Position numbers and translations under genes: made by a program. The notes beneath the pieces were generated by a model. It was not told the origin of the DNA. It did not search any database and saw nothing but the letters and a program-made list of their open reading frames with translations. A stretch of DNA of 64,000 nucleotides from a bacterium (GTDB lineage: Bacteria; Patescibacteriota; Microgenomatia; Woykebacterales; RBG-16-39-9b): NCBI GenBank assembly GCA_030704665.1, contig JAUYID010000009.1, forward strand, positions 64,163-128,162. The letters run 5' to 3'. How positions within the stretch are numbered: the stretch's first letter is position 1; each line of letters starts with the position of its first letter. Of the stretch, positions 21,021 to 57,235 are shown one piece after another.

Positions 21021-21095
21021 TCCTCGGTAGCTCAATGGTAGAGCGGCTCCCTGTTAAGGAGATGGTTGTAGGTTCGAATCCTACCCGAGGAGCCA
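21021..21095 (+). tRNA. tRNA-Asn(GTT)
   Basis: Acceptor TCCTCGG/CCGAGGA, anticodon loop CT-GTT-AA, T-loop GGTTCGAATCC, CCA encoded. Its 3' end is overlapped by the stop region of the recombinase gene. Confidence 0.8.
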
Positions 21096-22769
21096 GATAG
21101 GATTTGGGGTCACAGAGACTCCATTTTCGTTTGTTGTAGCAGCTTCTTTTTCAGGTTCGAACATTTCACCAATGTCAGGACTCTTTTTTATGGCTTCCTC
21201 AATCAGTCTGTAAGGTTTTTTCACCTCTAGCGAGATAAGTTTATCTTTTAGTATTGGGTTCGAACCAAGACCAGCCAAAATAATCCTTTTCTTTTCCAAA
21301 CTGCCGTTTTCTAACCAGTAGGGTGCGTTTCTTGCAAAGTCGAAGTCTTTCTCTGCTTTTGTCATCCAATTCTCGACACTTTGATTTGTCTCTTTAAGTT
21401 TTTGTTCTAGTGACTTTTTATCTTTAAGTAGGGAAGTTTTTCGTTCCAAATACTCACTATCGGAAATAAGTTCCCCAGCCACGTTCTTAGGTGAAATCTT
21501 GAGTTTGAGTAGGTTATCAAGTTCGGTGAGAACGTCCTTGTGAGCCTCTTTGAGCGAGGCAGAGACGCTATTTCTTGTGTTCACTTCTACATCAGTCTCT
21601 TTGTTCAATTCTTCAATCGCCCAGTCTTGGAAAGCCTGTGAAATTTGTATTCGCTTTAGCTTGTCACTAAGTTGTTCTTCAAGTTTACTTACTTCAACAC
21701 TTCTTTGAGTGCAGTTAGGATTTTTCCTTTTTGTGCAGTGGTAGTAAATGTAGTGCAAGATTTTAGGATTTACCATAGCCTCGATTAGAATTTTACACTT
21801 TGGGCAGTCTGTCTTTCCGTTAGCAACGAATTTGAGTTTGCAAGATGGGCAAATAATTTGCCACTTTTCCTCAGCAGTTATAACAGCGTTACATTCCCCG
21901 CAATTCATGAGACCTGTATAAGCAAATTCGTGGGTTTTAGCTCTTGGTCGTCCTTTCCTTCCCAAAAGCATCTGTACCCTTTCAAATTCTTCTTTAGTTA
22001 TCATCTTCTCGTGCTTGCCGTCATACCAAACACCACTTCCTTTGGGGAACTCATAGCTACCATAATAGAAAGTATCTCGAAAAACTTCGTAAATTCTGCT
22101 TTTGGCCATGGGGTTCCCACCAATTCTTTTATGTTTGGGAGTTCTGTATCCCCATTCGTTATTTAGTTTGTCTAATATCTGGGGTGGTGTATAAGCACCA
22201 GTCAGCATTAATTCCCAAGCTTTTTTAATCAAAGGGAACCTTGTCGGGTCACTTTGGACAGTCTTATTACCCTTTTCTGCATATTTATCGTTCATGTAAC
22301 CTGGTTTGGCACCAGTGGGAAGTTGACCCATCCCTGCCTTAGTTCTAAGACCGCGTTTTACATCAACACTTAATTTAGAGGAAGAGTATTGAGAATGAGA
22401 TAAGGCACTTTGAAGCATCATTATTCCCTCAGGAGAGTTATCGAAATAGTAAGAACCGAACTTTAGGTCTTTAATTACTCCAGTTCTAACTAGGTAAGTG
22501 ATGGTTGCCGCGTCAATCTCGTTGCGTGATAGTCTGTCTGGGTGCCATGCGATAATTCCATCCGCTTGTCCAGATTTGATAAGTTCAATCATCTCTGCAA
22601 ACTTGGGGCGGTTGTCTGGGATGAAGGCACTTTTTGACTCTTCAAGGTCAATGGTGGTAGGGTGCAAATCAGGAAACTTCCTTTCAAGCTCAAGTCTTTG
22701 AGATTCGTTTGAAAGAGCCTGCCTTTCGTCTTGTTCTGATGATTTTCTTCTATACTCGATATATTGCAT
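21081..22769 (-). CDS. large serine recombinase (site-specific integrase)
   Basis: N-terminal resolvase catalytic domain (YRRKSSEQD...DRLSRN). Central recombinase domain. Cys-rich zinc-ribbon (CGECN...CPSCK...CPKCK). C-terminal coiled-coil. Confidence 0.85.
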   Translation of the reverse strand: MQYIEYRRKSSEQDERQALSNESQRLELERKFPDLHPTTIDLEESKSAFIPDNRPKFAEMIELIKSGQADGIIAWHPDRLSRNEIDAATITYLVRTGVIKDLKFGSYYFDNSPEGIMMLQSALSHSQYSSSKLSVDVKRGLRTKAGMGQLPTGAKPGYMNDKYAEKGNKTVQSDPTRFPLIKKAWELMLTGAYTPPQILDKLNNEWGYRTPKHKRIGGNPMAKSRIYEVFRDTFYYGSYEFPKGSGVWYDGKHEKMITKEEFERVQMLLGRKGRPRAKTHEFAYTGLMNCGECNAVITAEEKWQIICPSCKLKFVANGKTDCPKCKILIEAMVNPKILHYIYYHCTKRKNPNCTQRSVEVSKLEEQLSDKLKRIQISQAFQDWAIEELNKETDVEVNTRNSVSASLKEAHKDVLTELDNLLKLKISPKNVAGELISDSEYLERKTSLLKDKKSLEQKLKETNQSVENWMTKAEKDFDFARNAPYWLENGSLEKKRIILAGLGSNPILKDKLISLEVKKPYRLIEEAIKKSPDIGEMFEPEKEAATTNENGVSVTPNPIWLLG

Positions 22770-22893
22770 AACTTAAATGGCCACCCTGGTTGAACTCAGA
22801 TTCCTTGCGGTTTCTGTCCAAGATGGCCATTAAAAAACCACAAGATTCCTGAGTTCATTGTAATTATCTCATATACAAATGCAAAAATAAACA

Positions 22894-23526
22894 TCATATA
22901 GGCTTAGTGAATGTTTCAACAGCTTCTTCTAATCTATCGTCCTCTTTCCAACCATTTTCTGCCAAAATTGAATCTGCTAATTTCATATCTTCTATTGTAA
23001 AGCTGCTTGACTTACCACCTTCCTCCCACATTTTTTGATATTCTTCATCACTTCTTAAAGAACTAGAAGCCTTAGAAGAACTAAAAGCAGAAACCTCTTT
23101 TTGAGGCAATTCCTGTTTTACTAGCGAAACAAATTGTTCTGTAGGTGAAACTATCTGTTTCACTGGTGAAATGTTTTGTTGCACTACTGAAAGATTGATT
23201 TCATACTCACTTCTTCCAGTTCTAGTAATAAGACCCTTTTGCAAAAGCGTCTTTAAGTTGTTATTAACCTTAGTAGCAGACCATTCAGATTTTGGCAATA
23301 GTGCAGCTAAACCACGATTAGTTGCTTCCACTTTCCCATAAGTTTCTTGATTACCTTCAAACCAAGCATAAAGAGAGACTAATAATGACCAAAGTCTAAA
23401 TTCTGGGTCTGTTAGAGATAAGTCTCTGGCCACTAAGTGCCTTTTACGTGATAGTCTTTCAAAACCACTACCATTAAGCCTTTTTAGCAGATCCATGCTT
23501 ACCCCCATTTGGTATTGGCTCAACAA
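22894..23526 (-). CDS. hypothetical protein (island cargo)
   Basis: 210-aa ORF with internal short repeats (PVKQIV/PTEQFV/LVKQEL). The start could be the internal Met MDLLKRL. Confidence 0.45.
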   Translation of the reverse strand: MLSQYQMGVSMDLLKRLNGSGFERLSRKRHLVARDLSLTDPEFRLWSLLVSLYAWFEGNQETYGKVEATNRGLAALLPKSEWSATKVNNNLKTLLQKGLITRTGRSEYEINLSVVQQNISPVKQIVSPTEQFVSLVKQELPQKEVSAFSSSKASSSLRSDEEYQKMWEEGGKSSSFTIEDMKLADSILAENGWKEDDRLEEAVETFTKPI

Positions 23527-23833
23527 TCTCCCTCATTAAAGCCAAGAAATCAGTAGCCACATCAGCTGCTTCTTGATCAGAAAGTTCTGACCCAAACTCA
23601 AGTTTGTAGATATTTTTGAATTTTTCTAAGGCATTTTTACTGATCATTGGCTAAAAACTCTCCAACTAAAAACTCCAGGCTCACGAGAGATAAACCTGGA
23701 GATTCTAGCCCTCGTGACTTTTTAGCCACAAAAAAAGTGGCTGGTACATAAATTCATCAAATTCATGTGCCAACCACTGAGGCTGGGCGAGAGATAAGCT
23801 CTCGTCTTAACTAACTATAAGTATAACACGTCA

Positions 23834-24046
23834 TTAAATGTTTGAGATGAGTTCCAAAGGTTTAACTCCAAGTGCTTTAGCCAGTTTAACAATTGTTCTG
23901 AGAGTTGTATTTCTTCTACCCATCTCAATTTCATTGACTGAAGTCAGATCCATACCAATTTCGAACGCTAGTTTCTCTTGAGATAAACCTTTATTTTCTC
24001 TGAGTTCTCGAACTTTGCCCCCAAATTGTGAGAGGAAATTTTCACT
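23834..24046 (-). CDS. XRE-family helix-turn-helix transcriptional regulator
   Basis: LRENKGLSQEKLAFEIGMDLTSVNEIEMGRR is a classic HTH_XRE. Start placed at MSENFL. Transcribed divergently from 24110. Confidence 0.75.
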   Translation of the reverse strand, partial: SENFLSQFGGKVRELRENKGLSQEKLAFEIGMDLTSVNEIEMGRRNTTLRTIVKLAKALGVKPLELISNI

Positions 24047-24055
24047 CATGATTAT

Positions 24056-24105
24056 TGTATTTATGCCAAATGGTTGGTATAATGTCTTTGGCATTTATGC
24101 CAAAC
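24056..24105. promoter_or_regulatory. divergent promoter/operator: TTGTAT-17-TATAAT with three ATGCCAAA half-sites including a perfect TTTGGCAT-TT-ATGCCAAA palindrome
   Basis: Direct reading of the sequence between the XRE gene and the secreted-protein gene. The palindrome overlaps the -10/+1 region, as expected for repressor binding. Confidence 0.45.
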
Positions 24106-24109
24106 TAAT

Positions 24110-24559
24110 ATGAGACTTAAAATACTTCTAGTTATTTTAGGTTCTCTGCTTCTTGCCTCTGGAACCTATTTAGGAATAAATAAACTCAAACCACAACAAA
24201 AGGAACAAAGTTCTGTCGCTGTTGTTGTGGAGAATAAAGTAGCCACTAAATCTGCTGACCTAGCACAAGAAATGAAGAAAGAAGATCCAAAACAACCAGG
24301 AAAAGTAAAGGGATCTAGTACCAAAACAAACCCACCAGCCCCTTACCAGCCCTCGCAGGAACTAGTAGGCTACCTACAACCTTTAACCCAAGGTTTGGAG
24401 GTAGAAGCTCAAACTTCTACTGAAAATCCCAACTCTAACGAAACAAAAGACTGCACACCAATAACTCAACCTGGTACTTGGCAAGACGGCGTGGGAGTAA
24501 CTGTAACCATTGATCCTTGTACAAACATAAAACAGGATCAGCCTTTAATTAACCCTTAG
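24110..24559 (+). CDS. secreted hypothetical protein (signal peptide)
   Basis: MRLKILLVILGSLLLASGTYLG signal peptide. Low-complexity Q/P/T-rich mature region. Confidence 0.5.
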   Translation: MRLKILLVILGSLLLASGTYLGINKLKPQQKEQSSVAVVVENKVATKSADLAQEMKKEDPKQPGKVKGSSTKTNPPAPYQPSQELVGYLQPLTQGLEVEAQTSTENPNSNETKDCTPITQPGTWQDGVGVTVTIDPCTNIKQDQPLINP

Positions 24560-24572
24560 TGTCGGACATAAA

Positions 24573-24908
24573 ATGGAATGGTTTAACAAACTTACAAATC
24601 CTCAATTTGAAGCTAAAATAGAAGAACCTTCAGTCGAGCCTAACGAGCCTGAACAGGTAGTGGGCGTTAGAGATTTGAAGGGTGATGAAGGTAATACTAG
24701 TAATATGATGATATGGGGTGCTCCTTGGTGGCATTGGCTGGTTGGCTTAATAGTTTTTATACCTTTTCTACTTCTTATAAATCTAGTGGAGCGTTTAAAT
24801 CTGAATGAGAGCATAAAATTGTTGCTTTTAGTACCTGGGTCTGTGATTGTTTTTGGTATTTATGGTTTTATTACCCACGAGATTATTAAGAAGTTTTCAA
24901 AAAAGTAG
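24573..24908 (+). CDS. hypothetical membrane protein
   Basis: 111 aa. Acidic N-terminus then two TM helices. Confidence 0.45.
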   Translation: MEWFNKLTNPQFEAKIEEPSVEPNEPEQVVGVRDLKGDEGNTSNMMIWGAPWWHWLVGLIVFIPFLLLINLVERLNLNESIKLLLLVPGSVIVFGIYGFITHEIIKKFSKK

Positions 24909-24911
24909 GTT

Positions 24912-25040
24912 TATTCCTTTTCCTTTGGGATAATTCGCCAGGCGAATAATCTTTCTTTAGTAAAGAAAACCTCCTACTTTTTTCCTTTGAGATAGTGTGC
25001 CAGGCACATAATCTTTCCGTGTTTGCCTGGCGAGAGGTTG
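24912..25040. repeat. iteron-like direct repeats, each containing a short palindrome
   Basis: Repeat 1 TTCCTTTTCCTTTGGGATAATTCGCCAGGCGAATAATCTTTC (palindrome ATTCGCC-A-GGCGAAT). Repeat 2 TTTTTTCCTTTGAGATAGTGTGCCAGGCACATAATCTTTCC (palindrome TGTGCC-A-GGCACA). A third partial unit has TTGCCTGGCGA. Confidence 0.5.
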
Positions 25041-25049
25041 ATGAGGTTT

Positions 25050-25090
25050 AACCTGCAAAAGACTTTGCAGGTTGCTTTGTATTCTTTTAA
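25050..25090 (+). terminator. rho-independent terminator-like hairpin
   Basis: AACCTGCAAA-AGAC-TTTGCAGGTT perfect 10-bp stem followed by GCTTTGTATTCTTTT. Confidence 0.5.
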
Positions 25091-25312
25091 AAGCTTTAGC
25101 CTTATCAATGTCCTTTCAGAACCAAATTGGCTTAAATTTAGAAGCTTGCAATGTTTTTTGCAAGCTCTGCTGGCATGAAACAGTTTAAGATAATTTTAAA
25201 AAAATTTACGTACAGGGGAGGGAGTAGAGGTCTCGATCCTAAAAGTTGTAATTAGCCTTAACTTTTCGTCAAAATGTTGACTTTTGTTAGTCTTTGTAAA
25301 TTAATGTAAAGC

Positions 25313-25495
25313 TCAATCCAAACCAATTTCCTTGAACTTCTTATTTAAAATGTCGCTGATGTGCTTTTTTTGAAGCAGTTGCCAGGCAACCTGTCTTGGG
25401 TTTTTAGTAGCGTAGCCTGATCTTCTAACAGACTGAGCACCGCTCCCCAAACTCTCAAAATAAAATTTAACAAACAAACGTTCTTTTATAGTCAA
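25313..25495 (-). pseudogene. phage terminase small-subunit N-terminal fragment (remnant)
   Basis: The 60-aa ORF ERLFVKFYFESLGSGAQSVRRSGYATKNPRQVAWQLLQKKHISDIL matches the N-terminal DNA-binding region of terminase small subunits (the ...QAAIRAGYS... signature). Full-length proteins are ~150 aa, so this is truncated. Confidence 0.5.
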
Positions 25496-25553
25496 AATAA
25501 AACTCCTTTATTCATTTAACTAGCAATTAAAGTCTCGCTCTTTAGCTTCTATC

Positions 25554-27239
25554 ATGCTAAAATTCAACCTACTCATGGCATCAACTTTAGAGGATAAAAG
25601 TAAAGAAGAGCTAATAGGTATTATAAAACATCTAAAAAAGCGAAAGAAGTTTGGTTTGGTCTGGGAAGAAAAGCCAGAGGATGTTGTTGAGCAGTGCAAA
25701 AAAGAGCTACCAGTCCTTGAAGAAGTTAAAGACAAAACTATCGCTGAGGATTCAAACGGCCCTACAAATCTCCTTATTGAAGGTGATAATTACCATTCTT
25801 TATCAGTACTAAACTATACTCACGCTGGGAAAATAGATGTGATTTATATAGACCCGCCTTACAATACAGGTGCACGTGATTGGAAATACAACAACCACTT
25901 CGTAGATTCCAATGATACCTACAGACATAGTAAGTGGGTTGCTATGATGCATAAGCGTCTAATACTTGCAAAAAACTTACTTAAACAAGATGGGGTTTTA
26001 ATTGTCACCATTGATGACAATGAATTTAGTTCCCTCGGCCTTCTTTTAGATGAGATATTTCCCAATAAAGTTAGGACGACAGTTGTTATCAAATATAATC
26101 CAGCTGGTACTGCAAGAAGCGGGTTTTCCAGATGTCACGAGTATGCCATATACCTACTAAACCCAGGCCAAGAAATCAACAAAAAACCTGCCCCTCCCGA
26201 TATTAGAAGTAGAAATTTACGCCGAAATGGTAATAACTCCGACAGATCAGACAGTCCTACTATGTTTTACCCAATATATGTAGATAAGACCACACTTAAA
26301 GTCATTGGAGTTGGAGAAGCTCCAGGTAATGATTTTCATCCCGAAAAACAGACATTTGAGCACAACGATCGTTATGAAGTTTGGCCACTAGATGAAAATA
26401 ACAAGGAAAAAAACTGGTATTACAGTAGGAAAAGAGTGGAGGACAAAGGTAGTGAAGAATTAGTTGGTCGAGTTGTAAAGGAGAAAGTCCATCTTTATTT
26501 TTCTACTAGTAATAACTCTGAACAAAAATACCAAACAGTTTGGACGGGAAGCGAATATGACGCTGGGGCTTATGGAAGCAGCTTGGTTAAAGAAATAATT
26601 GATACAAAATTTCCTTTTCCCAAATCCCTATATGCCGTACGAGATTGCATAAAATCAGTAATTAAGTCTAAAGAAGCTATAGTTTTAGATTTTTTTGCAG
26701 GGTCGGGAACAACAGGACACGCGACTATGCTTCTTAATAAGGAAGATGGCGGTAACCGCCAGTTTATTTTATGCACTAATAATGAAAACGGGATAGCCGA
26801 GGAGATCACATATCCAAGAATAAAGAACACAATTTCAGGTTATTCTAACATAGAAGGTATTCCCGCTAATTTACGTTATTTCAAAACCTCTTTTGTATCC
26901 AAATCTAAAGTTTCTGACGACACTCGTAGAGAATTAGTTAAGCGTAGTTCTGAAATGATTTGTGTGAGAGAAAATACATTTGAGGAGACTGTAGATACAT
27001 CAAGTTTCAAGATCTACAAAGATTCCGAACATTTAACGGGCATTCTCTTTGATTTAAACTCTATAGATGACTTCAAAAAAACTGTAAGAGAGCAAAAGTT
27101 ACCTGCTAATATATACGTGTTTTCACTTACTAACGATACGTATGACGAGGATTTTGAAGATTTAGGAATTGATCACAATCTCTGCCCGATACCAGAAAGC
27201 ATACTTGAAGTTTATAGAAAAGTATTTAGGAGAAAATAA
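25554..27239 (+). CDS. mod: Type III restriction-modification DNA methyltransferase (Mod subunit, beta-class N6A/N4C MTase)
   Basis: DPPYNT (motif IV) precedes FFAGSGTTGHA (motif I), the beta-class order typical of Type III Mod. Abuts the res gene. Confidence 0.85.
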   Translation: MLKFNLLMASTLEDKSKEELIGIIKHLKKRKKFGLVWEEKPEDVVEQCKKELPVLEEVKDKTIAEDSNGPTNLLIEGDNYHSLSVLNYTHAGKIDVIYIDPPYNTGARDWKYNNHFVDSNDTYRHSKWVAMMHKRLILAKNLLKQDGVLIVTIDDNEFSSLGLLLDEIFPNKVRTTVVIKYNPAGTARSGFSRCHEYAIYLLNPGQEINKKPAPPDIRSRNLRRNGNNSDRSDSPTMFYPIYVDKTTLKVIGVGEAPGNDFHPEKQTFEHNDRYEVWPLDENNKEKNWYYSRKRVEDKGSEELVGRVVKEKVHLYFSTSNNSEQKYQTVWTGSEYDAGAYGSSLVKEIIDTKFPFPKSLYAVRDCIKSVIKSKEAIVLDFFAGSGTTGHATMLLNKEDGGNRQFILCTNNENGIAEEITYPRIKNTISGYSNIEGIPANLRYFKTSFVSKSKVSDDTRRELVKRSSEMICVRENTFEETVDTSSFKIYKDSEHLTGILFDLNSIDDFKKTVREQKLPANIYVFSLTNDTYDEDFEDLGIDHNLCPIPESILEVYRKVFRRK

Positions 27240-29521
27240 TGACACTAAAAAGCTACCAAAAAACTGCCGTGGATAAACTACTAAAGATAAGTAATAAGCT
27301 CCTGAAAAAAGATGGCCAAAGAGTTTGCGTCTTAAAAGCACCAACAGGTTCAGGTAAGACTATTATGATCGCTGACTTTTTGAAACAGCTTGCCGCTGAA
27401 CAGCTGCCCAATTCGTATGCCTTTATTTGGGTGAGTGGTAACAACCTACACAAACAAAGTAGAGATAAGCTCGAAAGATACCTTAATCCAAGCCGCTACA
27501 CCTTCTCTTACCTCGAAGAGATTCAGAACAGTGAGATAAAAGAAAACGAGATTGTCTTTGTTAACTGGCATAGCTTGACCAAACAAGATAGAACTACAGG
27601 TGAATACACCAACGTTTTTATGAGGGACAATGAAACCGATCAAAATCTTCGAACCTTTGTTAAAAACACTAAGGAAAATGGGTTACAAATTATACTGATA
27701 GTTGATGAAAGTCACTATCATTACTGGTCACTAAAATCTCAGCAGCTTGTCCAAGAGGTTATTGGCCCTAAATTGACACTAGAGGTTTCTGCTACACCAA
27801 AACTAGAACCTTCCAGAGATGAGATTGATCATGATGAAGCGGGGTATGTCTCCGTTCGTTTTGATGACGTAATCGCAGAAGGAATGATTAAAAGCGAAGT
27901 GATAATCAACAAAGAGATCGGTAAATACTCGGAATTTTCTAACGCTGCTGATGAAGCGATCCTTTCAGCTGCTTTGGAAGAGCGTCAGGAATTGGCTAAG
28001 CTGTACGAAGAAAGAAAGTCTGACATCAATCCTCTGATGTTAATTCAACTTCCGAGTGAAAGTGAATCAACAAGCAGCCTTGATAAAACTAAGCTTGAGT
28101 TTGTGGAAAGTTTTCTCAAAGAAAAGCACAATATTACAGTTGAAAATGGTTTGCTTGGAATTTGGTTGTCTGAGAGAAAAGATCATGTAGATAATATCTC
28201 TGATCCAGATAGTAGCGTACAAGTTTTGATCTTTAAGCAAGCGATTGCATTAGGATGGGATTGCCCAAGAGCACAAGTACTTGTTATGTTCAGAGAAATA
28301 AAGAGTGTTACCTTTGAAATACAGACTGTTGGGCGAATACTTAGAACACCAGAGGCGAAGCACTACGAGGAGGATCAACTAAATAAGGCTTACGTTTACA
28401 CAAATCTTGAAAAACTACATATTGCCCAAGACAAAGAAAGTCAGTCGTTTTTCCAGGTTTACCCTGCACATAGAACAGCAAAATATTCGAAAATCGAATT
28501 ACCCTCTACATATCTAAGTCGTATTGACTATGGTGATCTTACTCTGAGTTTTAGAAAACTATTTCTCGAAGAGGCTAATAAGTATTTTGGCGTTTCAGAA
28601 AACGACATGCCTAGTGGAGCGAAGAAAAAGGCTGATGTAAAACTCGATCTTCTTCCTAGCGAATTAAAACAACCAGTTATCTCTGATACAGTTATTCAAG
28701 ATATTGATGATCCTGAAAGTATTCTTGGGCCTATTGTTAACTTCCCTGTTCCTGAGGATGATTTGAAATACAAGTTTGAATACTTTGCTAAAGCCCGTTC
28801 TGTTCCTTATGCTCCTGTTCGCTCTCACACAAAAATTCAACAAGCGATTTATGATTGGTTTGACGATTACTTAGGTTACAAAGATTCAAGCAGAATTGAA
28901 ATCCAGCGTATTGTAGTATGTTCTGAAAATAACCAAAAGATTTTCAAGGAAATAATTGAGACTGCAAAGGATCGCTTCAAGGAAGTTAATAAAAAGGAGA
29001 AACAAGCTAAACAGCCTGAAAAAGCAGTTGTTTGGGACGTTCCAGCCCTTCAGTACTTCAATGAGCTTTATGAGGCCATAGAAACCTCTAACTACTCTCA
29101 AGAACCATGTTACGTACAGAAAGGCCGATCAGCTCCTGAAAAAGAATTTGAAGATGAAATTAAAAAAAGTAAGACGATTGATTGGTGGTATAAAAACGGC
29201 ACCAACAAGGAAAGCTTTTTCGCCTTACCTTATCAGCATCCAATCAAGGACACTAAACAAAGTTTCTACCCAGACTTTATCATTCACTTCAAAGATGGTT
29301 CTACAGGAATTTATGACACAAAGAGTGAAGCTACAGCGGAAAGTACTGAAACAGCAGCAAAATCAGACGCTTTGTATGCTTATCTAAAAGAACTCAATTC
29401 AAAGGGGTTTAAAGTCAAAGGAGGGATCGTTAATGTGAAACCCTCTGGAATGTTTATTTACGAGGCTAAGAAGTATAGTACTGATCCTAATTCCCCTGGT
29501 TGGCATAGAGCGGAAATCTAA
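27239..29521 (+). CDS. res: Type III restriction enzyme Res subunit (SF2 helicase-nuclease)
   Basis: Walker A VLKAPTGSGKT. DEAH-like IVDESHY. Helicase motifs QTVGRILR. Start overlaps the mod stop (ATGA). Confidence 0.85.
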   Translation: MTLKSYQKTAVDKLLKISNKLLKKDGQRVCVLKAPTGSGKTIMIADFLKQLAAEQLPNSYAFIWVSGNNLHKQSRDKLERYLNPSRYTFSYLEEIQNSEIKENEIVFVNWHSLTKQDRTTGEYTNVFMRDNETDQNLRTFVKNTKENGLQIILIVDESHYHYWSLKSQQLVQEVIGPKLTLEVSATPKLEPSRDEIDHDEAGYVSVRFDDVIAEGMIKSEVIINKEIGKYSEFSNAADEAILSAALEERQELAKLYEERKSDINPLMLIQLPSESESTSSLDKTKLEFVESFLKEKHNITVENGLLGIWLSERKDHVDNISDPDSSVQVLIFKQAIALGWDCPRAQVLVMFREIKSVTFEIQTVGRILRTPEAKHYEEDQLNKAYVYTNLEKLHIAQDKESQSFFQVYPAHRTAKYSKIELPSTYLSRIDYGDLTLSFRKLFLEEANKYFGVSENDMPSGAKKKADVKLDLLPSELKQPVISDTVIQDIDDPESILGPIVNFPVPEDDLKYKFEYFAKARSVPYAPVRSHTKIQQAIYDWFDDYLGYKDSSRIEIQRIVVCSENNQKIFKEIIETAKDRFKEVNKKEKQAKQPEKAVVWDVPALQYFNELYEAIETSNYSQEPCYVQKGRSAPEKEFEDEIKKSKTIDWWYKNGTNKESFFALPYQHPIKDTKQSFYPDFIIHFKDGSTGIYDTKSEATAESTETAAKSDALYAYLKELNSKGFKVKGGIVNVKPSGMFIYEAKKYSTDPNSPGWHRAEI

Positions 29522-29564
29522 GACACTACCGAAACCTGCTATAGAAACTCTTTGGTTAAAAAGC

Positions 29565-31298
29565 TTAGTCTTTTAGATCAAATTTAGAATAAAGCCAGCT
29601 AAAAATCTCTTCCACCTTTGTCCGAGTACTTTTAGACAAAGTTATTTTACTCGAATCGGTCTCAACATCCTCAAGAAAAACCCTTGAAACAAGCTCTTTC
29701 TTGCCTTTTACCAACTCTGAGTTGGATTTACTAACTTTAGTTGGGTAGCTTTCCTTTAGAATAAATTTATAAAAATCCTTGGGATCAAAAATATCTTCAA
29801 TTCCCATACAATCCTTTATTTTCTTGATACTTTCTCCAGCAACGGTATCGTTGTCCTCGAAAAACTCCTTTTTAAGCTGATTGTAAGCTTTTCTACCCGA
29901 GTCTCTATCATCGTCAAAAACAGCTTTAAAAGGATAACCCCAGCCTAATAAAACACTCGCTACATTGGCAATATTATTAACTCCGCAAGCGGGAATGAAG
30001 CAAAGTTTGTCGTCTTTGTCTAAAAGCTTCTGAAAAGCTGAAAGATAATAATGGTCGCTTATACCTTCAACCAGAACGTTAAGTCTAAGATTCGGATCTA
30101 ACAAAGAGTGAGAGGCACTGAGTCCCATCGCTGTCACAATAGGCGAGAGGGCATCCATTCCACCTTTATGCTTTCTCCCACTAAATTGGGCGACAGTTTC
30201 AACCTTTGTACAAAAATCTTTTTCATTAGTTACCAAGCGTATTCTAGCAAACTCCTTGCCAACTACCCCGATAAGATTTGGGTTGTGTGTCGTGTAGATA
30301 ATTTGTGCACCTTTGGAAGCTATTTCGTTCAAAACTTTCTTAACATCTTTTTGGGCCCTTTCATGCAAACCTTGACCAGGCTCATCAATAAGTATCACCA
30401 GATTTTTTATTGAGGATTCCTCGACCCCTAAAGCTCTTAACCTTAAATTAAACGCACTAAACCATTGAAAACCCTGGCTTTTTTGCTCCATATAAAGAGG
30501 GTCGCCATCATTTCGGTCAATTAAGAACTGAATTTTTGGTGATGTTTCGTGCGGAAGTATTTTTACCTTAAAGTTGTAACGTCCATTTTCCTCAAGCTGT
30601 TGCGACCAATAAGTGTTTAGATCATCACTAGCTTCTTTTTCCAACCTACTTTCTTCTCTGTTGACTGCTCTTGCATCCTTTCCAGCTATATCGGAGAAAT
30701 TTGCTTTAAAAACTGCTTGAAAGTCCATTACAGCCTGGTGATTGCTAATATCAGCGACAGGTACTTCTCCAGGAAGAAGATCCCTAAAGGAATCATAAAA
30801 GACGAATTTTCTCATTTCAATTACCAAATCTTTTAAAAGACCTTCCAAGGTAGTTATACTCGCTTTGTTTGCTACCTCTTGCCCTTCAGTCTCTGGTGCT
30901 GGATTATCATCAACTACGAAAAAACTAGCTAATTGCTCAGAATCCTTACTTTCAAATTCAATGTCACCCACGTTTCTTCTAACAAATGTTATTTTTGGAT
31001 TCTTGGTCAGAAATGATCTTAACTTCTGATTCTCTGTTTCGTTGAAAATATTTTCTATATCCCAATCTTCCAGCAGAAAGGTGCAAGTTACTTCTGGATC
31101 CTGCCCTTGCCTTCTTAAAAGACGTTCAAAGTCTGGTTGCGGGCCGTTTCGAAAAAAGTCCAGGGATTCTATAATTGCACTTTTACCAGCCTCGTTTTGT
31201 CCTGCCAGAATAGTGATGTTATCTTTCTCAGGTAGCTCGCAGAATCCAGTATCAACTATAGATTTAAAATTTTTAATTTGAAATGCTGCTAATCTCAT
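29565..31298 (-). CDS. OLD-family ABC-ATPase fused to a TOPRIM nuclease domain (Gabija GajA / PARIS-like defence nuclease)
   Basis: N-terminal Walker A AGQNEAGKSA. Walker B/D-loop LVILIDEPGQGLHERAQ. C-terminal TOPRIM (VLVEGISDHYYL...FIPACGVNN). Confidence 0.75.
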   Translation of the reverse strand: MRLAAFQIKNFKSIVDTGFCELPEKDNITILAGQNEAGKSAIIESLDFFRNGPQPDFERLLRRQGQDPEVTCTFLLEDWDIENIFNETENQKLRSFLTKNPKITFVRRNVGDIEFESKDSEQLASFFVVDDNPAPETEGQEVANKASITTLEGLLKDLVIEMRKFVFYDSFRDLLPGEVPVADISNHQAVMDFQAVFKANFSDIAGKDARAVNREESRLEKEASDDLNTYWSQQLEENGRYNFKVKILPHETSPKIQFLIDRNDGDPLYMEQKSQGFQWFSAFNLRLRALGVEESSIKNLVILIDEPGQGLHERAQKDVKKVLNEIASKGAQIIYTTHNPNLIGVVGKEFARIRLVTNEKDFCTKVETVAQFSGRKHKGGMDALSPIVTAMGLSASHSLLDPNLRLNVLVEGISDHYYLSAFQKLLDKDDKLCFIPACGVNNIANVASVLLGWGYPFKAVFDDDRDSGRKAYNQLKKEFFEDNDTVAGESIKKIKDCMGIEDIFDPKDFYKFILKESYPTKVSKSNSELVKGKKELVSRVFLEDVETDSSKITLSKSTRTKVEEIFSWLYSKFDLKD

Positions 31299-41065: not shown

Positions 41066-41236
41066 TTCTTTTGCGACCTTTTTGAAAAGGTAGCGCCAAA
41101 ACTTTCGCTAAACTTCGCTAGCTGTTAAACTATGCAAAAAAGCTCGGGAATCCTCGGAAATTCTCTTCGGTCAGTTTCCATTCCCTCTTCGCTTTTTAGC
41201 AAGTTTAAAGACGCTAGCTACGTAATAGCGATTAAT

Positions 41237-41863
41237 ATGAAAAAACTAGAAAAATACACTTCCATGCGCGATCCAGGGAAAACCCCGGAACCTTTTACTA
41301 GCAAAGATATTGATCCAGAAAAGCTAGTTTACGTGGTTCAGAAACATTCAGCTACAGCTCTCCACTACGATTTTCGCCTGGAAATGGGTGGTGTCATGCC
41401 TTCCTGGGCGATTCCCAAAGGTCCTAGTCTCGACAACAGTGTGAAAAGATTAGCCATGCAAACTGAAGACCACCCCCTGGATTACCGACACTTTGAAGGG
41501 GTAATTCCGGCTGGTGAGTATGGTGCTGGACCAGTCATTATTTGGGACGAGGGTTGGTACTTACCTGAGACTGAAATTTCGCCTGGGATCAGGAAAGAAA
41601 TTCGGGATAAAAAAGAAGGGGAGAAAGCCATGCTTGCAGGACTGGAAAAAGGAGAAATAAAATTTTTTCTTTATGGAAAAAAACTAAAGGGCAGTTTTAC
41701 CTTGGTCAAAACTAAGGGCTTCCCACCGGGCAAAGCAGGGAAAAATGCTTGGCTTTTGATCAAGCACAAAGATCACTTTGTGGTTGAAGGCTATGATGCA
41801 GCTGAGTTTAAAGAATCAGCTCTTTCCGGAAAAACTCTTGAGGAAATAAAAGAGAAGGGTTAA
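41237..41863 (+). CDS. LigD-type 3'-phosphoesterase (PE) domain protein, stand-alone
   Basis: The QKHSATALHYDFRLE...PKGPS...EDHPLDY...GEYGAG motif order matches the LigD N-terminal PE domain. Start placed at the internal Met MKKLEKY. Confidence 0.65.
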   Translation: MKKLEKYTSMRDPGKTPEPFTSKDIDPEKLVYVVQKHSATALHYDFRLEMGGVMPSWAIPKGPSLDNSVKRLAMQTEDHPLDYRHFEGVIPAGEYGAGPVIIWDEGWYLPETEISPGIRKEIRDKKEGEKAMLAGLEKGEIKFFLYGKKLKGSFTLVKTKGFPPGKAGKNAWLLIKHKDHFVVEGYDAAEFKESALSGKTLEEIKEKG

Positions 41864-53977: not shown

Positions 53978-54005
53978 CCCGAAGTCACTCTTCGGGTTTT
54001 TGTTT
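53978..54005 (+). terminator. rho-independent terminator
   Basis: CCCGAAG-TCACT-CTTCGGG followed by TTTTTGTTTT. Confidence 0.55.
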
Positions 54006-54041
54006 TAAAAGGAATGGTATAATAAATTTTAGCTGTTGAAC

Positions 54042-54117
54042 TTGTAGCTCAGCGGTTAGAGCACCATTTAACACTTGCTGGGTCAGTAGCTCAGCGGTTA
54101 GAGCACCACTCTTATAT
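54042..54117 (+). repeat. two tandem 5'-fragment copies of the tRNA-Ile(TAT) gene
   Basis: 54042-54064 repeats the D-arm (GTAGCTCAGCGGTTAGAGCACCA, 23/23 identical). 54084-54117 repeats from the D-arm to the anticodon loop (34/34 identical) and breaks inside CTTATA|T. Confidence 0.55.
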
Positions 54118-54133
54118 CTTGCTTGGGCACCGA

Positions 54134-54209
54134 TTGGATCGGTAGCTCAGCGGTTAGAGCACCACTCTTATAAAGTGGGGGTCCTTGGTTCAAATCCAAG
54201 CCGATCCAC
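54134..54209 (+). tRNA. tRNA-Ile(TAT), intact copy
   Basis: Acceptor GGATCGG/CCGATCC, D-arm GCTC-AGCGGTTA-GAGC, anticodon stem CCACT/AGTGG with loop CT-TAT-AA, T-arm CTTGG-TTCAAAT-CCAAG, discriminator A, CCA encoded. Confidence 0.7.
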
Positions 54210-54274
54210 CATAGTCTTTACTGACTGATCAAAGTGGGAGAAAAGCAAGATAATGAGTAAGATGTATTCTTGCG

Positions 54275-54392
54275 AATATAAAGTGGGGGTCCTTGGTTCA
54301 AATCCAAGCTGACCCACCAGAGTCTTAATTGACTGATCACAGTGGTTCTCCAGCAGTAATTTTAGTGGAAGGTCCTTGGTTCAAATCCAAGC
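54275..54392 (+). repeat. two 3'-half copies of the tRNA-Ile(TAT) gene (att-like scars)
   Basis: 54275-54317 is identical over 32 nt (TATAAAGTGGGGGTCCTTGGTTCAAATCCAAG) to the intact gene from the anticodon loop onward, then carries a variant acceptor CTGACCCACCA. 54362-54392 is a second, shorter copy (AGTGGAAGGTCCTTGGTTCAAATCCAAG). Confidence 0.55.
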
Positions 54393-54481
54393 AAGTTCGA
54401 TAGCACCTTATATCGCGCTAAAGGTAATTCTGAAGAATTGTTAAAATTAGATGCGCGCGATATTTTGTCGATTACGCCAAA

Positions 54482-54892
54482 ATGAAACTATCCTACGCAC
54501 TTGTAGCTGATCACGCTTTTTTGTCAATTGATAAAAAGGTAAATATTATCGGAATTTTTGAGACGATCAACTCAGTCTCTTTTCCGGTGATCCATCCAAA
54601 ATTTGTTGTGGTTGGTTCGATCGAGCCGAGTCAGCAGACTTTCAAAATGGCCCTCAATATCGCAGATGCCATGACCGGACAGAGCATTATCGACAACTCT
54701 ACCGAAAGAGAAATTAAACTTCCACCCAATCAGATCAATGCCAACTTCAACTTCATCATCGAAATAGTAAATATTAATTTCAGAGCCGCCGGAAACTACC
54801 GGGTCGAGATCCTCATCGATGGACAAAAGCTTGGCGAGGTCCCCTTGAAAGTGGTTCAAGCCCCAACTCCGATCGATTCACCTCAGGCTTAG
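54482..54892 (+). CDS. hypothetical protein (element cargo)
   Basis: 136-aa ORF with no recognised motif. Confidence 0.45.
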   Translation: MKLSYALVADHAFLSIDKKVNIIGIFETINSVSFPVIHPKFVVVGSIEPSQQTFKMALNIADAMTGQSIIDNSTEREIKLPPNQINANFNFIIEIVNINFRAAGNYRVEILIDGQKLGEVPLKVVQAPTPIDSPQA

Positions 54893-54959
54893 GCTTTACT
54901 TCCAGCAAACAAATTTCTAAAATAGCGTTGACCGAATCTGCAAGCAAGGGAGGGGAGAG

Positions 54960-55187
54960 ATGGTTAAGGCACTACTACCCGAGACTAAGGTTGAGGGTTG
55001 GCTCGACACCAACGAGGCGGCGGCTCTGCTTGGTGTTCACCCGCAAACAGTACGAGTGTTGGTGCGCAAGGGTAAGCTAGAAGCCACTCACTTGAACAGC
55101 TCTCGACTTGTTTTTGAGGAAGCTAAAGTCGAGAAGTTCAAAGGCGGTTACAAACCAAGGAAACCAGAGAGGAGGGTTTTAAGGTGA
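54960..55187 (+). CDS. excisionase-like helix-turn-helix DNA-binding protein
   Basis: LDTNEAAALLGVHPQTVRVLVRKGKL is an HTH_17/Xis-type motif. Confidence 0.55.
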   Translation: MVKALLPETKVEGWLDTNEAAALLGVHPQTVRVLVRKGKLEATHLNSSRLVFEEAKVEKFKGGYKPRKPERRVLR

Positions 55188-55426
55188 CTAAGAAAAACTT
55201 AGCCGACTACCTTACGGTTAAGCAGGTGGCTGAGGAGCTAAGTGTTCAACGACGAACAGTACTAAGACAGATCAAAGCCGGCAATCTCAAGGCCTTTTGG
55301 TTTGGAAGAGGTTTTCTGGTCGAGAAAAAGGAGCTGGAGCGTTTTAGGAAGACCTACAAAGGGAGAGTCGGGCATCCGCGAGTTGAGGTAGAGGGGCTAG
55401 GGGCTTGGCTTGATAAATTGAGCTGA
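55184..55426 (+). CDS. excisionase-like helix-turn-helix DNA-binding protein
   Basis: LTVKQVAEELSVQRRTVLRQIKAGNLKAF is an HTH_17/Xis-type motif. Overlaps the upstream stop (GTGA). Confidence 0.6.
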   Translation: MTKKNLADYLTVKQVAEELSVQRRTVLRQIKAGNLKAFWFGRGFLVEKKELERFRKTYKGRVGHPRVEVEGLGAWLDKLS

Positions 55427-55431
55427 GCCTC

Positions 55432-56304
55432 TTAGAGTTCGTCAAGTTTGATCGGTTCTTCGAGTCTTCCTTGAATTAAATTCAAATATTTCTCGGTAGT
55501 TGCTAATCTTTTGTGGCCAGCGAGCTTGCTGACGAGAACCAGAGAAGTGCCAGCCATGAGGTGATGGGCGACAAAAGTGTGGCGCAGATCATTCACTTTA
55601 GCGTCTTTAATGCCAGCAAGTTTGAAGTAGCGGTCGATTGCAGTTCGAATATTGCGCACAAGTAAGGGGCGACCGGTTTTGGTAACAAACAAAGTTTCAT
55701 CTTTGGTATTGGGTCGAATTTCCAAATACTTTTTTAGAGAAACTTCAGCAGCTTTGTTCAAAGGGACAGTCCTTTCTGGGTAACTTTCTCCCGCCGGAAC
55801 GTGAATTTCCCCTATCTTTGAGTTTTCAGAAAAGTGCAGATCGTCCATCTTTAGTTTCGCGAGCTCCCCAATTCGAATTCCAGTTTGCAAGAGAACCTCA
55901 ATGATGGCACTGATACGAATATCAGCCCGAGCCGCGTCTCGCAGCGCGCGGTACTCCATTTTGGAAAGAATTCTCGGTGGTTTCATTTCAAATTTGGGGT
56001 GTTCAAGTAGGGAAGCGGGGTCATCGGTCAAAACATCGGTGACTTTGAGAAAACGGAAGAAAGTCTTGGTTGAGTTGGTTTTTCGAGAAATACTTTTTGG
56101 AGTGTAGCCTTCCTTGGAAAGTTTGGCCATGAAAGCGCGCAGATCTTTGGTATCAATACCTTCAATTTCAGCTTTTTTTAAGCTAGCAAGAAAATTTACC
56201 AGCTGTTCAATATCTTTCCCATAGGCCAAAACAGTCGCACTGCTGCGACCTTGACTCTTTAAATGGTCAACAAATTTGGCATGGGCTTCGTGGAGTTTTG
56301 TCAT
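55432..56304 (-). CDS. tyrosine-type site-specific recombinase/integrase
   Basis: N-terminal SAM-like core-binding domain. C-terminal catalytic residues R (LRDAARA), HxxR (LRHTFVAHHL) and the nucleophile Y in EKYLNL. Confidence 0.85.
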   Translation of the reverse strand: MTKLHEAHAKFVDHLKSQGRSSATVLAYGKDIEQLVNFLASLKKAEIEGIDTKDLRAFMAKLSKEGYTPKSISRKTNSTKTFFRFLKVTDVLTDDPASLLEHPKFEMKPPRILSKMEYRALRDAARADIRISAIIEVLLQTGIRIGELAKLKMDDLHFSENSKIGEIHVPAGESYPERTVPLNKAAEVSLKKYLEIRPNTKDETLFVTKTGRPLLVRNIRTAIDRYFKLAGIKDAKVNDLRHTFVAHHLMAGTSLVLVSKLAGHKRLATTEKYLNLIQGRLEEPIKLDEL

Positions 56305-56635
56305 ATTTCTAGCAGTCTATTTGAATTGTACCAATTTGGAATAGCACCTGTCAAGAGACTATAGGGTACTTGCTGGAAGCAAGTTCCCTGCGAAAGCTAA
56401 AGCTTTCTTAGGTCACTAGGGGTAATGTCCTACCGTAAATCAGATGCTGCCTAATCTGCGCTCAAGCATAGTCTGACGACTATTTGCTTGATCTTAGGGT
56501 TTCTAAGAAACAAACCACCGAAAATCCTTGATAGCAACTTCGTCAACAGTTTTAAGTTATAAGGGCGCAAAGCATATGTAGCCATAACCTAGAGTTTGGG
56601 TCAGATTGTTAGCTTTGTCTTGGTATAATTAGAAA

Positions 56636-57028: not shown

Positions 57029-57103
57029 CGCGGGTGGGGGGTATAGCATCCCGCGAGGCTCATAATCTCGCTTAAGCCGGTGCGAATCCGGCACCCGCAA
57101 CCA
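57029..57103 (+). tRNA. tRNA-Met(CAT) with initiator-like features (C1:A72 mismatch, A73)
   Basis: Acceptor CGCGGGT/ACCCGCA with unpaired C1-A72 as in bacterial tRNA-fMet. Anticodon loop CT-CAT-AA. T-arm GCCGG-TGCGAAT-CCGGC. Ends AACCA. D-stem GGGG/TCCC. The anticodon stem lacks the canonical three G-C pairs, so initiator identity is tentative. Confidence 0.6.
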
Positions 57104-57160: not shown

Positions 57161-57235
57161 TGGTGGCTGCGGCTGGATTTGAACCAGCGACCAACGGCTT
57201 ATGAGTCCGCTGCTCTACCACTGAGCTACGCAGCC
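57161..57235 (-). tRNA. tRNA-Met(CAT) (elongator Met or lysidine-modified Ile2)
   Basis: The reverse complement folds with acceptor GGCTGCG/CGCAGCC, D-arm GCTC-AGTGGTA-GAGC, anticodon loop CT-CAT-AA (A31:G39 mismatch), T-arm GCTGG-TTCAAAT-CCAGC, and CCA. Confidence 0.7.

Follow-up and report, generated by a model that had tools for sequence, protein, structure and literature searches.

Concentric relics around a tRNA-Ile(UAU) gene of Woykebacterales suggest repeated insertion of small, promoter-less tRNA cassettes into the anticodon loop

How does an intact tRNA gene come to lie between two broken 5' halves and two broken 3' halves of genes much like itself? The question is raised by a locus in a bacterium of the Woykebacterales (Patescibacteriota; assembly GCA_030704665.1), in which a tRNA-Ile(UAU) gene is enclosed by such fragments in an arrangement that we call a nest. 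The sequence analysed, hereafter the window, is a stretch of 64,000 nt from contig JAUYID010000009.1 (positions 64,163 to 128,162); all coordinates refer to the window, and the nest was analysed at 54038-54399. A preliminary description of the window had read the locus as a hotspot at which an element with a tyrosine integrase was integrated and excised several times. Several insertions are indeed recorded here, but not as the integration and excision scars of a kilobase-sized element: the halves are concentric, and the inserts are of about 130-300 bp and carry a complete tRNA. We consider it probable that small tRNA cassettes without a promoter of their own inserted repeatedly and site-specifically in the anticodon loop of the resident gene, each replacing its function and leaving the old halves to decay.

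The anatomy of the nest can be read directly. ARAGORN calls a single complete tRNA in the region, and the gene itself is as the preliminary description had it, only its coordinates (54134-54209) having been set about 2 nt too low. The two partial 5' copies and two partial 3' copies noted earlier reappear in a comparison of the region with itself, as 22 nt repeated exactly in three copies and as repeats of 38-69 nt at 91-100% identity; exact repeats of this length exclude chance. What the earlier reading had missed are the acceptor strands of the fragments and their concentric pairing. The order is 5'A / 5'B / C / 3'B / 3'A, where C is the intact gene, and the acceptor stems of A (GAACTTG/CAAGTTC), B (GGGTCAG/CTGACCC) and C (GGATCGG/CCGATCC) are each complementary at all seven positions. 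When the 157-bp insert and one TATA are taken out, 5'B and 3'B join to a perfect 76-nt cloverleaf, and positions 8-37 of 5'B are identical to tRNA C. The inserts in the window measure 131 and 157 bp, the 157-bp cassette contains no open reading frame (ORF), and the breaks fall after CTTATA and before TATAA. The trailers of B and C remain homologous for 26 nt past the CCA end (within a 69-nt repeat that is 91% identical), and this homology beyond the tRNA indicates that each insert is a tRNA gene with its own flanks. We regard A as the oldest gene because its anticodon loop has been lost and there is an extra base in its variable region, which in 3'A is 1 nt longer than in C. As a folded RNA, the unit of 375 nt has its outermost acceptor strands paired and exceeds shuffled sequences in stability (z = -5.2). 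Further pairings occur in the flanks: within the trailer of the innermost cassette are a hairpin AGTC...GACT (54213-54226), a GTGG (54234-54237) that pairs with the CCAC of the tRNA 3' end, and an end hairpin GCAAGA/TCTTGC (54245-54273) followed by GAA, and TGCTGG (54076-54081) is complementary to CCAGCA (54350-54355), a weak pairing of 6 bp only. The other nine tRNAs of the window have no fragments of this kind.

Orthologous loci, which the preliminary description had proposed to compare, are nested at the same place in relatives and differ in content. Loci fetched for comparison carry labels of the form Lnnn and include two samples: a scan of species representatives, one genome per species, with the anticodon arm CACTCTTATAAAGTGGGGGTC as query (113 genomes matched, 112 loci usable), and 80 metagenomic loci fetched via the protein of the neighbouring Xer-type recombinase. 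The closest relative, L140, has the same outermost relic A and the same promoter motif around a single inner tRNA with the acceptor GGGTCCA, and L017, L019, L022, L025 and L141 have nests of one or two levels with other alleles at the same locus. Among Woykebacteria the whole nest including the promoter occurs in either orientation between the same flanking genes (L019 versus L141; L142-L180), and in more distant relatives all are oriented as in the window. Relic halves are found in about 20 of the 112 usable species-representative loci, with three levels in L080 (Paceibacterota) and at least four in L036. Among the 80 Xer-fetched loci, relics occur in about half of those with an Xer identity of at least 80% and in roughly 15-20% of the more distant ones.

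Three regularities run through these nests. First, the break point is constant. If those broken in the anticodon arm are counted as true relics, and neighbouring intact tRNAs that share a D-arm are left out, the last tRNA position kept is 34-38 in 5' relics and the first is 33-37 in 3' relics; the earlier claim that all fragments break in the anticodon loop is thus borne out, with ends and starts at positions 33-38. Second, the nests are compact: when both strands around 175 tRNA-Ile(UAU) genes were examined with a limit of 450 nt, none had a relic farther than that from the intact gene. Third, the outer halves belong together and decay. Of 19 levels paired automatically, 11 have outer acceptors complementary at all seven positions (8.5% on random re-pairing), and in 18 the outer acceptors differ from the inner allele; the automatic procedure mispaired the window's own levels, whose pairs were taken instead from direct analysis of complementarity and folding. 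Decay increases with depth, for example through loss of the loop in A, mismatched acceptors in L022, and hairpin insertions in L097 and L101. The same architecture is found in other tRNA species. The elongator tRNA-Met(CAU) on the other side of the recombinase gene is nested in many relatives, breaking exactly after CTCA (position 35) and resuming with TAAGCC, and tRNA-Cys (L095, break after CTGC) and tRNA-Ala (L112, break after CTTG) are interrupted likewise; relics of tRNA-Val are less clear, the clearest being in L039, where a 5' relic runs to about position 37. Among the loci at hand, relics accompany 38 of 154 tRNA-Ile(UAU) genes, 11 of 49 elongator tRNA-Met genes, 5 of 51 tRNA-Val(GAC) genes, 1 of 50 initiator genes, and none of 17 tRNA-Leu(GAG) genes. 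Since the breaks lie at the centre of the loop across tRNA species, the break point is structural rather than sequence-defined.

Insertion itself is most directly visible in one family of cassettes, type 2, to which the innermost cassette of the window belongs and which occurs in six genomes (the window, L069, L115, L134, L153, and L178). Its left end reads (T)ATA[T/A]CTTGC, and its right end is a hairpin GCAAGA-loop-TCTTGC followed by GA[A/T] and then by the TATAA of the resident loop. Four of the six copies start with TCTTGC, L115 with ACTTGC and L069 with TCTCGC; all end in CTTGCGA[A/T], and the flanking TATA repeat is present wherever both junctions survive. Five of the six carry the allele GGATCGG, and the six copies are independent insertions in six different resident alleles (GGGTCAG, GGATCGG, GGGTCCA, one like GGGCCAG, GGGCACA, and GGGCGTG). 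Alleles also switch roles: GGATCGG is innermost in the window and outermost in L069 and L048, and GGGTCCA is an inner gene in L140 and an outer one in L115. The allele GGGCGTG provides an empty site, being uninterrupted in L145 and L170 and filled in L178, and the difference between the two states is the cassette plus a 4-bp duplication of TATA. This allele has the anticodon stem GGTGT/ACACC instead of CCACT/AGTGG, and the flanking homology amounts to 6 nt at most. Because the resident stem in L178 mismatches that of the cassette right up to TATA, identity between cassette and target is limited to the loop and site-specific insertion is required; homologous recombination through the tRNA body is thereby ruled out as the way in which type 2 spread.

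Other families have other ends. Type 1 shows GCG-YCCCG-loop-CGGGR before (T/A)AAAGTGG, type 3 has CCGATATATCGGC... ahead of the junction, and type 4 has GC-rich terminal repeats, CCCGCC... and ...GGCGGG. The length of the duplication differs as well (0 nt in L044 and L063, 2-3 nt in L080, 3-4 nt elsewhere), always centred between positions 35 and 36. In every cassette the tRNA is enclosed by a leader-trailer helix, and a hairpin immediately precedes the 3' junction. Flanking inverted repeats of at least 10 bp are largely specific to nested genes, the background being about 6 bp with a maximum of 8-9. Leader-trailer helices, of unique sequence, are also found at the un-nested Woykebacteria genes L067, L156, and L168, and a cassette therefore resembles a tRNA transcription unit that is complete except for the promoter. 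In a consensus fold of the six type-2 cassettes (RNAalifold), the leader helix TCTTGC/GCAAGA is kept with one compensatory change of UA to AU, the trailer hairpin covaries between UA and CG (three sequences each), and a pairing of CCAU with GUGG sequesters the 3' end. This pattern argues for selection on the cassette flanks as RNA, in the service of an inner tRNA that has to fold or be processed while still part of a long precursor.

Separate observations concern the flanks and the dead halves. The trailer of the allele GGGCGTG in L145, L170, and L178 includes GTGGTGGGTGTG(G/A)(G)CCTGG, which is complementary, with G.U pairs, to the T-arm and acceptor 3' strand of the same tRNA and is followed by a run of T; it forms a terminator-like hairpin using the tRNA 3' end as one arm. 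GC-rich hairpins occur inside the D-loop, variable region, or T-arm of dead halves of tRNA-Ile and tRNA-Met (L097, L101, L017, L019, L141, and L025), for example GGATGC-loop-GCATCC, CTCGCAAAGCGAG, and CCCGCCCGAACGG...GGGCGGG, and the same hairpin recurs at equivalent sites of dead halves in different genomes. In phage tRNA arrays of IMG/VR (L005, L006, L007/L010, L009, and L011), tRNA halves stand in circularly permuted order, the 3' half first and then, 4-25 nt on, a 5' half whose acceptor strand is complementary; these halves sit directly upstream of a normal tRNA, and the joined pieces give tRNA-like ARAGORN calls.

The sequence of events that we favour would run as follows. An ancestral tRNA-Ile(UAU) gene, A, with its own promoter, would have been split in the anticodon loop by a cassette in which the complete gene B lay between a short leader and a structured trailer, and a second cassette, with tRNA C, would later have broken B at that same point. 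Each insertion would kill the resident gene and make the cassette tRNA its essential replacement, while the displaced halves, now without function, would decay; the next cassette would target the new gene, so that halves pile up concentrically. Insertion would be centred between positions 35 and 36, with 0-4 nt duplicated according to family, and would be independent of homology with the target stem. The agent must act in trans or be a property of the folded cassette, since the cassettes encode no protein; that insertion takes place at the DNA level, and that an enzyme supplied in trans performs it, we infer. In an empty-site form of B, GGGTCAG...CTTATAAAGTGG...CTGACCC would be uninterrupted, and a circle or junction of the excised cassette would read TTCTTGCGAA-TATA-TCTTGCTTGGGC.

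Expression of the inner gene would likewise depend on the resident. The inner-gene leaders of the window are 12 and 19 nt long and cassette leaders overall 12-37 nt, lengths that leave no room for a promoter. The extended -10 motif TGGTATAAT upstream of 5'A lies beyond the terminator of the preceding unit (53978-53996 in a terminator scan), and the motif (G)TGGTATAAT recurs in L017, L019, and L140, where it precedes the outermost 5' half by 15-25 nt; the promoter consensus scan, which requires a -35 box, did not flag it. This motif probably drives the whole nest, and the new gene would then be read from the resident promoter in one long precursor and freed by ordinary tRNA processing. The long-loop hairpin downstream of 3'A may be the end of the transcription unit; the terminator scan made no call there.

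Several points weigh against this account. All of the sequences are metagenome assemblies. The window, 221 loci, IMG/VR, and phage and plasmid collections yielded neither an enzyme nor an excised intermediate nor an autonomous parent element: searches of IMG/VR with the cassette trailer pattern, the 18-mer of the type-2 end, the junction pattern, and the tRNA arm returned nothing or chance matches without a tRNA, and BLAST against phages and plasmids matched the tRNA body only. Known recombinases would not easily handle a unit of about 160 bp, a duplication length that varies between families is not what any one known mechanism predicts, and simple insertion does not account for the perfect inverted repeats of 17-20 bp in some nests (L080). 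More speculative, and in our estimation doubtful, is the idea that tRNA genes of the candidate phyla radiation are selfish mobile units: a bare unit of leader helix, tRNA, and trailer hairpins would insert at the apex of a homologue's anticodon hairpin, guided by structure and not by sequence, perhaps via a folded intermediate of single-stranded DNA or RNA, and would destroy the resident copy and so become indispensable.

The alternatives that fare best are both unlikely. One holds that the nests are collapsed prophages or islands of the kind known from tRNA-dependent lysogeny in actinobacteriophages, in which an essential host tRNA gene is disrupted without being rebuilt and the common core is short (Guerrero-Bustamante and Hatfull, 2024; PMC10865867), deletions having spared only the element's tRNA once it had become essential. 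That known mechanism would cover disruption without rebuilding, a replacement tRNA of the same isotype, and a short core shared with the target (PMC10865867), all of which resemble the nest, and genomes of the candidate phyla radiation are strongly streamlined. Yet tRNA-dependent lysogeny involves a whole temperate phage with its own tyrosine integrase and a core of about 10 bp, whereas the insert in a nest is 130-300 bp of tRNA alone, without a promoter, with a core of 0-4 nt, and is itself the next target. Intermediates are absent from the distance test described above, and no such tRNA-Ile(UAU) or junction sequence exists in IMG/VR. Moreover, the same compact type-2 ends in six genomes would need either six identical deletions or the spread by homology that L178 excludes.

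The other, to which we give equally little weight, is copying mediated by RNA or a single strand, in which a processed pre-tRNA copy or imported single-stranded DNA, closed by its leader and trailer, would insert at the apex of the anticodon hairpin with no sequence-specific recombinase. It would account for promoter-less cassettes with a leader helix at the start and a hairpin at the end, for the similar helices of un-nested L067, L156, and L168, for helices that covary and contain G.U pairs on the sense strand (also in L115 and L017), and for a break at the structural centre of the loop in tRNA-Ile, -Met, -Cys, and -Ala whatever the sequence. Against it, the window revealed neither a reverse transcriptase nor a suitable ligase, and the end sequences fixed within families fit a sequence-specific enzyme better. 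By inspection, G.U pairs and A.C mismatches are few and mixed (about five versus three), too few to decide between RNA and DNA helices. We know of no bacterial precedent for such copying of a tRNA cassette.

The integrase element of the preliminary description is much less probable still. It had in its favour that breaks in the anticodon loop fall at the classic class I crossover position and that a tyrosine recombinase and two ORFs with excisionase domains lie 0.6-2 kb from the nest. The recombinase and the two Xis-like genes are present as described, according to Pfam and HTH_17 matches, but the recombinase does not behave as a gene of an integrated element. Its top NCBIfam matches are XerC (172.7 bits), XerD, and XerA, over the full length and below the equivalog cut-offs, and its listed homologues share 69-91% identity, the closest of them (about 100, at 80-91%) being mostly from Candidatus Woykebacteria (Patescibacteria). 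The gene order CvpA/CAP, tRNA-Ile(UAU), DUF6941, recombinase, DivIC, and, farther on, tRNA-binding protein, TrpRS, and FtsH is kept in all relatives inspected; recombinase and tRNA-Ile stay linked at identities as low as 57%, and in the inspected Woykebacteria loci DUF6941 and DivIC are adjacent. The recombinase lies outside the outermost relic, as 3'A ends at 54399, and is syntenic in relatives that lack the nest or differ in it. Conserved synteny, Xer matches, and a position outside the nest together indicate a core Xer-type gene rather than the integrase of an inserted element, and by these sequence criteria it is evidently a chromosomal gene of the XerC/XerD type, inherited vertically. The HTH_17 pair was seen only in the window and in its closest relative L140; the other relatives inspected have no HTH_17 gene there, and in L017, L019, and L022 the gap between DUF6941 and xer is 1-5 nt. 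Nests also occur in lineages whose fetched block contains no xer (14 of the 20 nested loci in the species sample), and the adjacent Xer protein is accordingly unsupported by linkage as the agent of insertion, though it might act in trans. Classical lambda-type integration leaves a hybrid tRNA and, as fragments, only displaced 3' ones, and precise excision leaves no scar; here, by contrast, there are 5' relics with matched acceptors, and no kilobase-scale element occurs in the 175 loci. Attachment-site repeats around the recombinase module were also considered, namely ATAGCACCT at 54402 and 56337, and rejected, a 9-mer being expected by chance in 2 kb and the module being core. The neighbouring recombinase should therefore not carry an annotation as a prophage integrase. 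Between its start and a divIC-like gene lies a non-coding stretch of 330 nt (56305-56635) with several short hairpins and no match to an Rfam family.

Table 1. Features of the nest and of other parts of the window.
Feature	Position	Strand	Basis and remarks
Putative extended -10 promoter TGGTATAAT	54015..54023	+	sequence; upstream of 5'A; presumed function
5'A, outermost 5' half: acceptor GAACTTG, intact D-arm, then CCA; reaches start of anticodon stem, anticodon loop missing	54038..54067	+	repeats; pairs 7/7 with CAAGTTC at 54392-54398
Leader of cassette B, TTAACACTTGCT	54068..54079	+	sequence
5'B: acceptor GGGTCAG, D-arm, anticodon stem, loop to CTTATA	54080..54116	+	repeats
Leader of innermost (type-2) cassette; TCTTGCTT (54117-54124) pairs with AAGCAAGA (54243-54250)	54117..54135	+	folding
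tRNA-Ile(UAU) C, sole intact gene; acceptor GGATCGG/CCGATCC, CCA encoded	54136..54211	+	ARAGORN (tat), Rfam tRNA model (73.8 bits), cloverleaf
Trailer of type-2 cassette	54212..54276	+	folding, RNAalifold
3'B: TATAAAGTGG...CTGACCC ACCA	54277..54319	+	repeats; its TATA duplicates 54113-54116
Trailer of cassette B, homologous to C trailer (GAGTCTTAATTGACTGATCACAGTGG...)	54320..54362	+	69-nt repeat
3'A: TAGTGG...CAAGTTC, 3' strand of anticodon stem, intact T-arm, discriminator G, no CCA	54363..54399	+	repeats
Long-loop hairpin ATATCGCGC...GCGCGATAT, then TTT	54410..54466	+	sequence
Two ORFs with HTH_17/excisionase domains	54960-55426		between DUF6941 and xer
Tyrosine recombinase, 290 aa	55432-56304	minus	Pfam Phage_int_SAM_1 and Phage_integrase
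Large serine recombinase, 562 aa	21081-22769	minus	overlaps tRNA-Asn 3' end
Type III methyltransferase	25554-27239		island
Type III restriction subunit	27239-29521		island
OLD/AAA_15-type ATPase	29565-31298		island

Functional split or intron-bearing tRNAs, in which the outer halves would be exons joined after processing and the inner tRNA would lie within an intron, are at least as improbable as the integrase element, and we give them marginally less credence. B is perfect once its insert is removed, the exons abut precisely in L063 and L044 (CTTA, insert, TAAAGTGG), and the junction helices recall the complementary leaders of split tRNAs in Nanoarchaeum. Split halves of the archaeal type are expressed and joined by a bulge-helix-bulge (BHB) endonuclease and a ligase. 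The outer halves of the nests, however, decay (A has no loop, and mismatched acceptors or hairpin insertions occur elsewhere), the junction falls between positions 35 and 36 with 0-4 duplicated nt instead of at the canonical 37/38, and no BHB motif was evident by inspection, no dedicated BHB search having been run. To our knowledge, bacteria do not possess a splicing endonuclease, which counts further against this explanation. Nor does the insert appear to be a self-splicing intron: no group I or group II family reaches the Rfam gathering score anywhere in the window, and identity of the insert as a group I intron was rejected for want of an Rfam match. An assembly artefact from co-assembled strain variants of one tRNA locus would fit the metagenomic source and an independent Logan assembly of SRR13727534 that breaks at 54115 and 54280, inside the repeats, but it can practically be set aside given the unique spacers that join the copies, an ordered concentric complementarity unlike graph errors, and analogous nests in numerous independent assemblies, contigs of 846 and 915 kb among them.

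Repeated insertion of tRNA cassettes can also be set beside known mobile elements. The class I sites that Williams is said to have described in 2002, and the Islander database, reportedly comprise islands and prophages integrated in the tRNA anticodon loop. These share with the nest an anticodon-loop target flanked by a symmetric stem and displaced fragments that mark events, but there the element's own 3' half restores a hybrid tRNA, only 3' fragments are displaced and these lie kilobases away, and an integrase is carried. Archaeal and algal split, permuted, or multi-intron tRNAs (Nanoarchaeum, Thermoproteales, Cyanidioschyzon) have separated halves and complementary sequence beside the break, as nests do; unlike them, the halves of a nest decay around a complete gene. 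Miniature inverted-repeat transposable elements (MITEs) and elements of the IMEX type are likewise tiny, protein-less inserts with defined ends, and the constant 4-bp duplication of type 2, with an enzyme presumably encoded elsewhere, recalls them; the type-2 cassette differs in its essential tRNA cargo, in having a homologous gene as sole target, and in not needing adjacency to xer. Many dispersed copies and a transposase partner, as in MITEs, were not found: among 141 fetched loci the 18-mer of the type-2 end occurs elsewhere only at the nested tRNA-Ile gene of L069, IMG/VR has none, and neither a transposase nor a reverse transcriptase nor a homing endonuclease turned up in the window. Group I introns are known from tRNA genes of Patescibacteria, including anticodon position 35/36 (PMC13011429). 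Homing introns resemble the nest as selfish inserts in the tRNA anticodon loop, in the same phylum and at the same 35/36 site, that spread between alleles, whereas the nest has no ribozyme core by Rfam and no splicing, and compensates with a new gene. Full-text literature searches on nested, interrupted, or fragmentary tRNA genes of Patescibacteria turned up no description of the pattern, but only work on these introns (PMC13011429) and on displaced tRNA fragments from integrated elements (PMC9897764).

The UAU anticodon, described earlier as rare, belongs to a genuine tRNA. The same anticodon arm occurs in the 113 matched species representatives, mostly labelled Patescibacteria, and with sequence and position conserved across so wide a lineage the gene is evidently not a decayed pseudogene. 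As for tilS, whose absence from the genome would, according to the preliminary description, fit such a tRNA, no ORF within the 64-kb window carries the PP-loop motif SGGxDS. A second tRNA with a CAU anticodon, of elongator type, lies at 57161-57235, and an initiator-like tRNA-Met (CGCGGG..., 57029-57103) was called by ARAGORN, scores below the Rfam tRNA gathering threshold, and has an unusual D-arm, GGGGGGTATAGCATCCC. Elsewhere in the window, 21021-31298 is a genuine island beside tRNA-Asn(GTT) (21021-21095); it is the window's integrated mobile and defence element, unlike the Xer locus. Its large serine recombinase was considered as the agent of cassette insertion and rejected, as it belongs to a separate island and a conservative 2-bp crossover misfits junctions of 0 and 4 nt. 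A stand-alone protein with a LigD 3'-phosphoesterase domain is encoded at 41132-41863; this bacterial end-joining module for end processing could, from its domain content, bear on break repair.

The nests would represent a form of tRNA turnover in which an essential gene is replaced from within and its history is stored as concentric relics, a readable record of horizontal exchange among the ultra-small bacteria of the candidate phyla radiation. Relics of this kind mislead tRNA annotation and interrupt the assembly of short reads, as seen in the Logan contigs, whose ends fall within the repeats. Because the host is left without a copy of its own, the cassettes would be inherently addictive, and they would constitute a minimal selfish element that needs neither a promoter nor a protein. 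That several tRNA species are broken between positions 35 and 36 suggests some activity with a specificity for the anticodon hairpin, either of the tRNA gene or of the tRNA. If insertion were structure-guided and independent of an enzyme, the cassettes would form a new class of mobile element; a structure-guided selfish tRNA unit would in that case be a class without genes, and the nests a living example of how split and interrupted tRNA genes arise.

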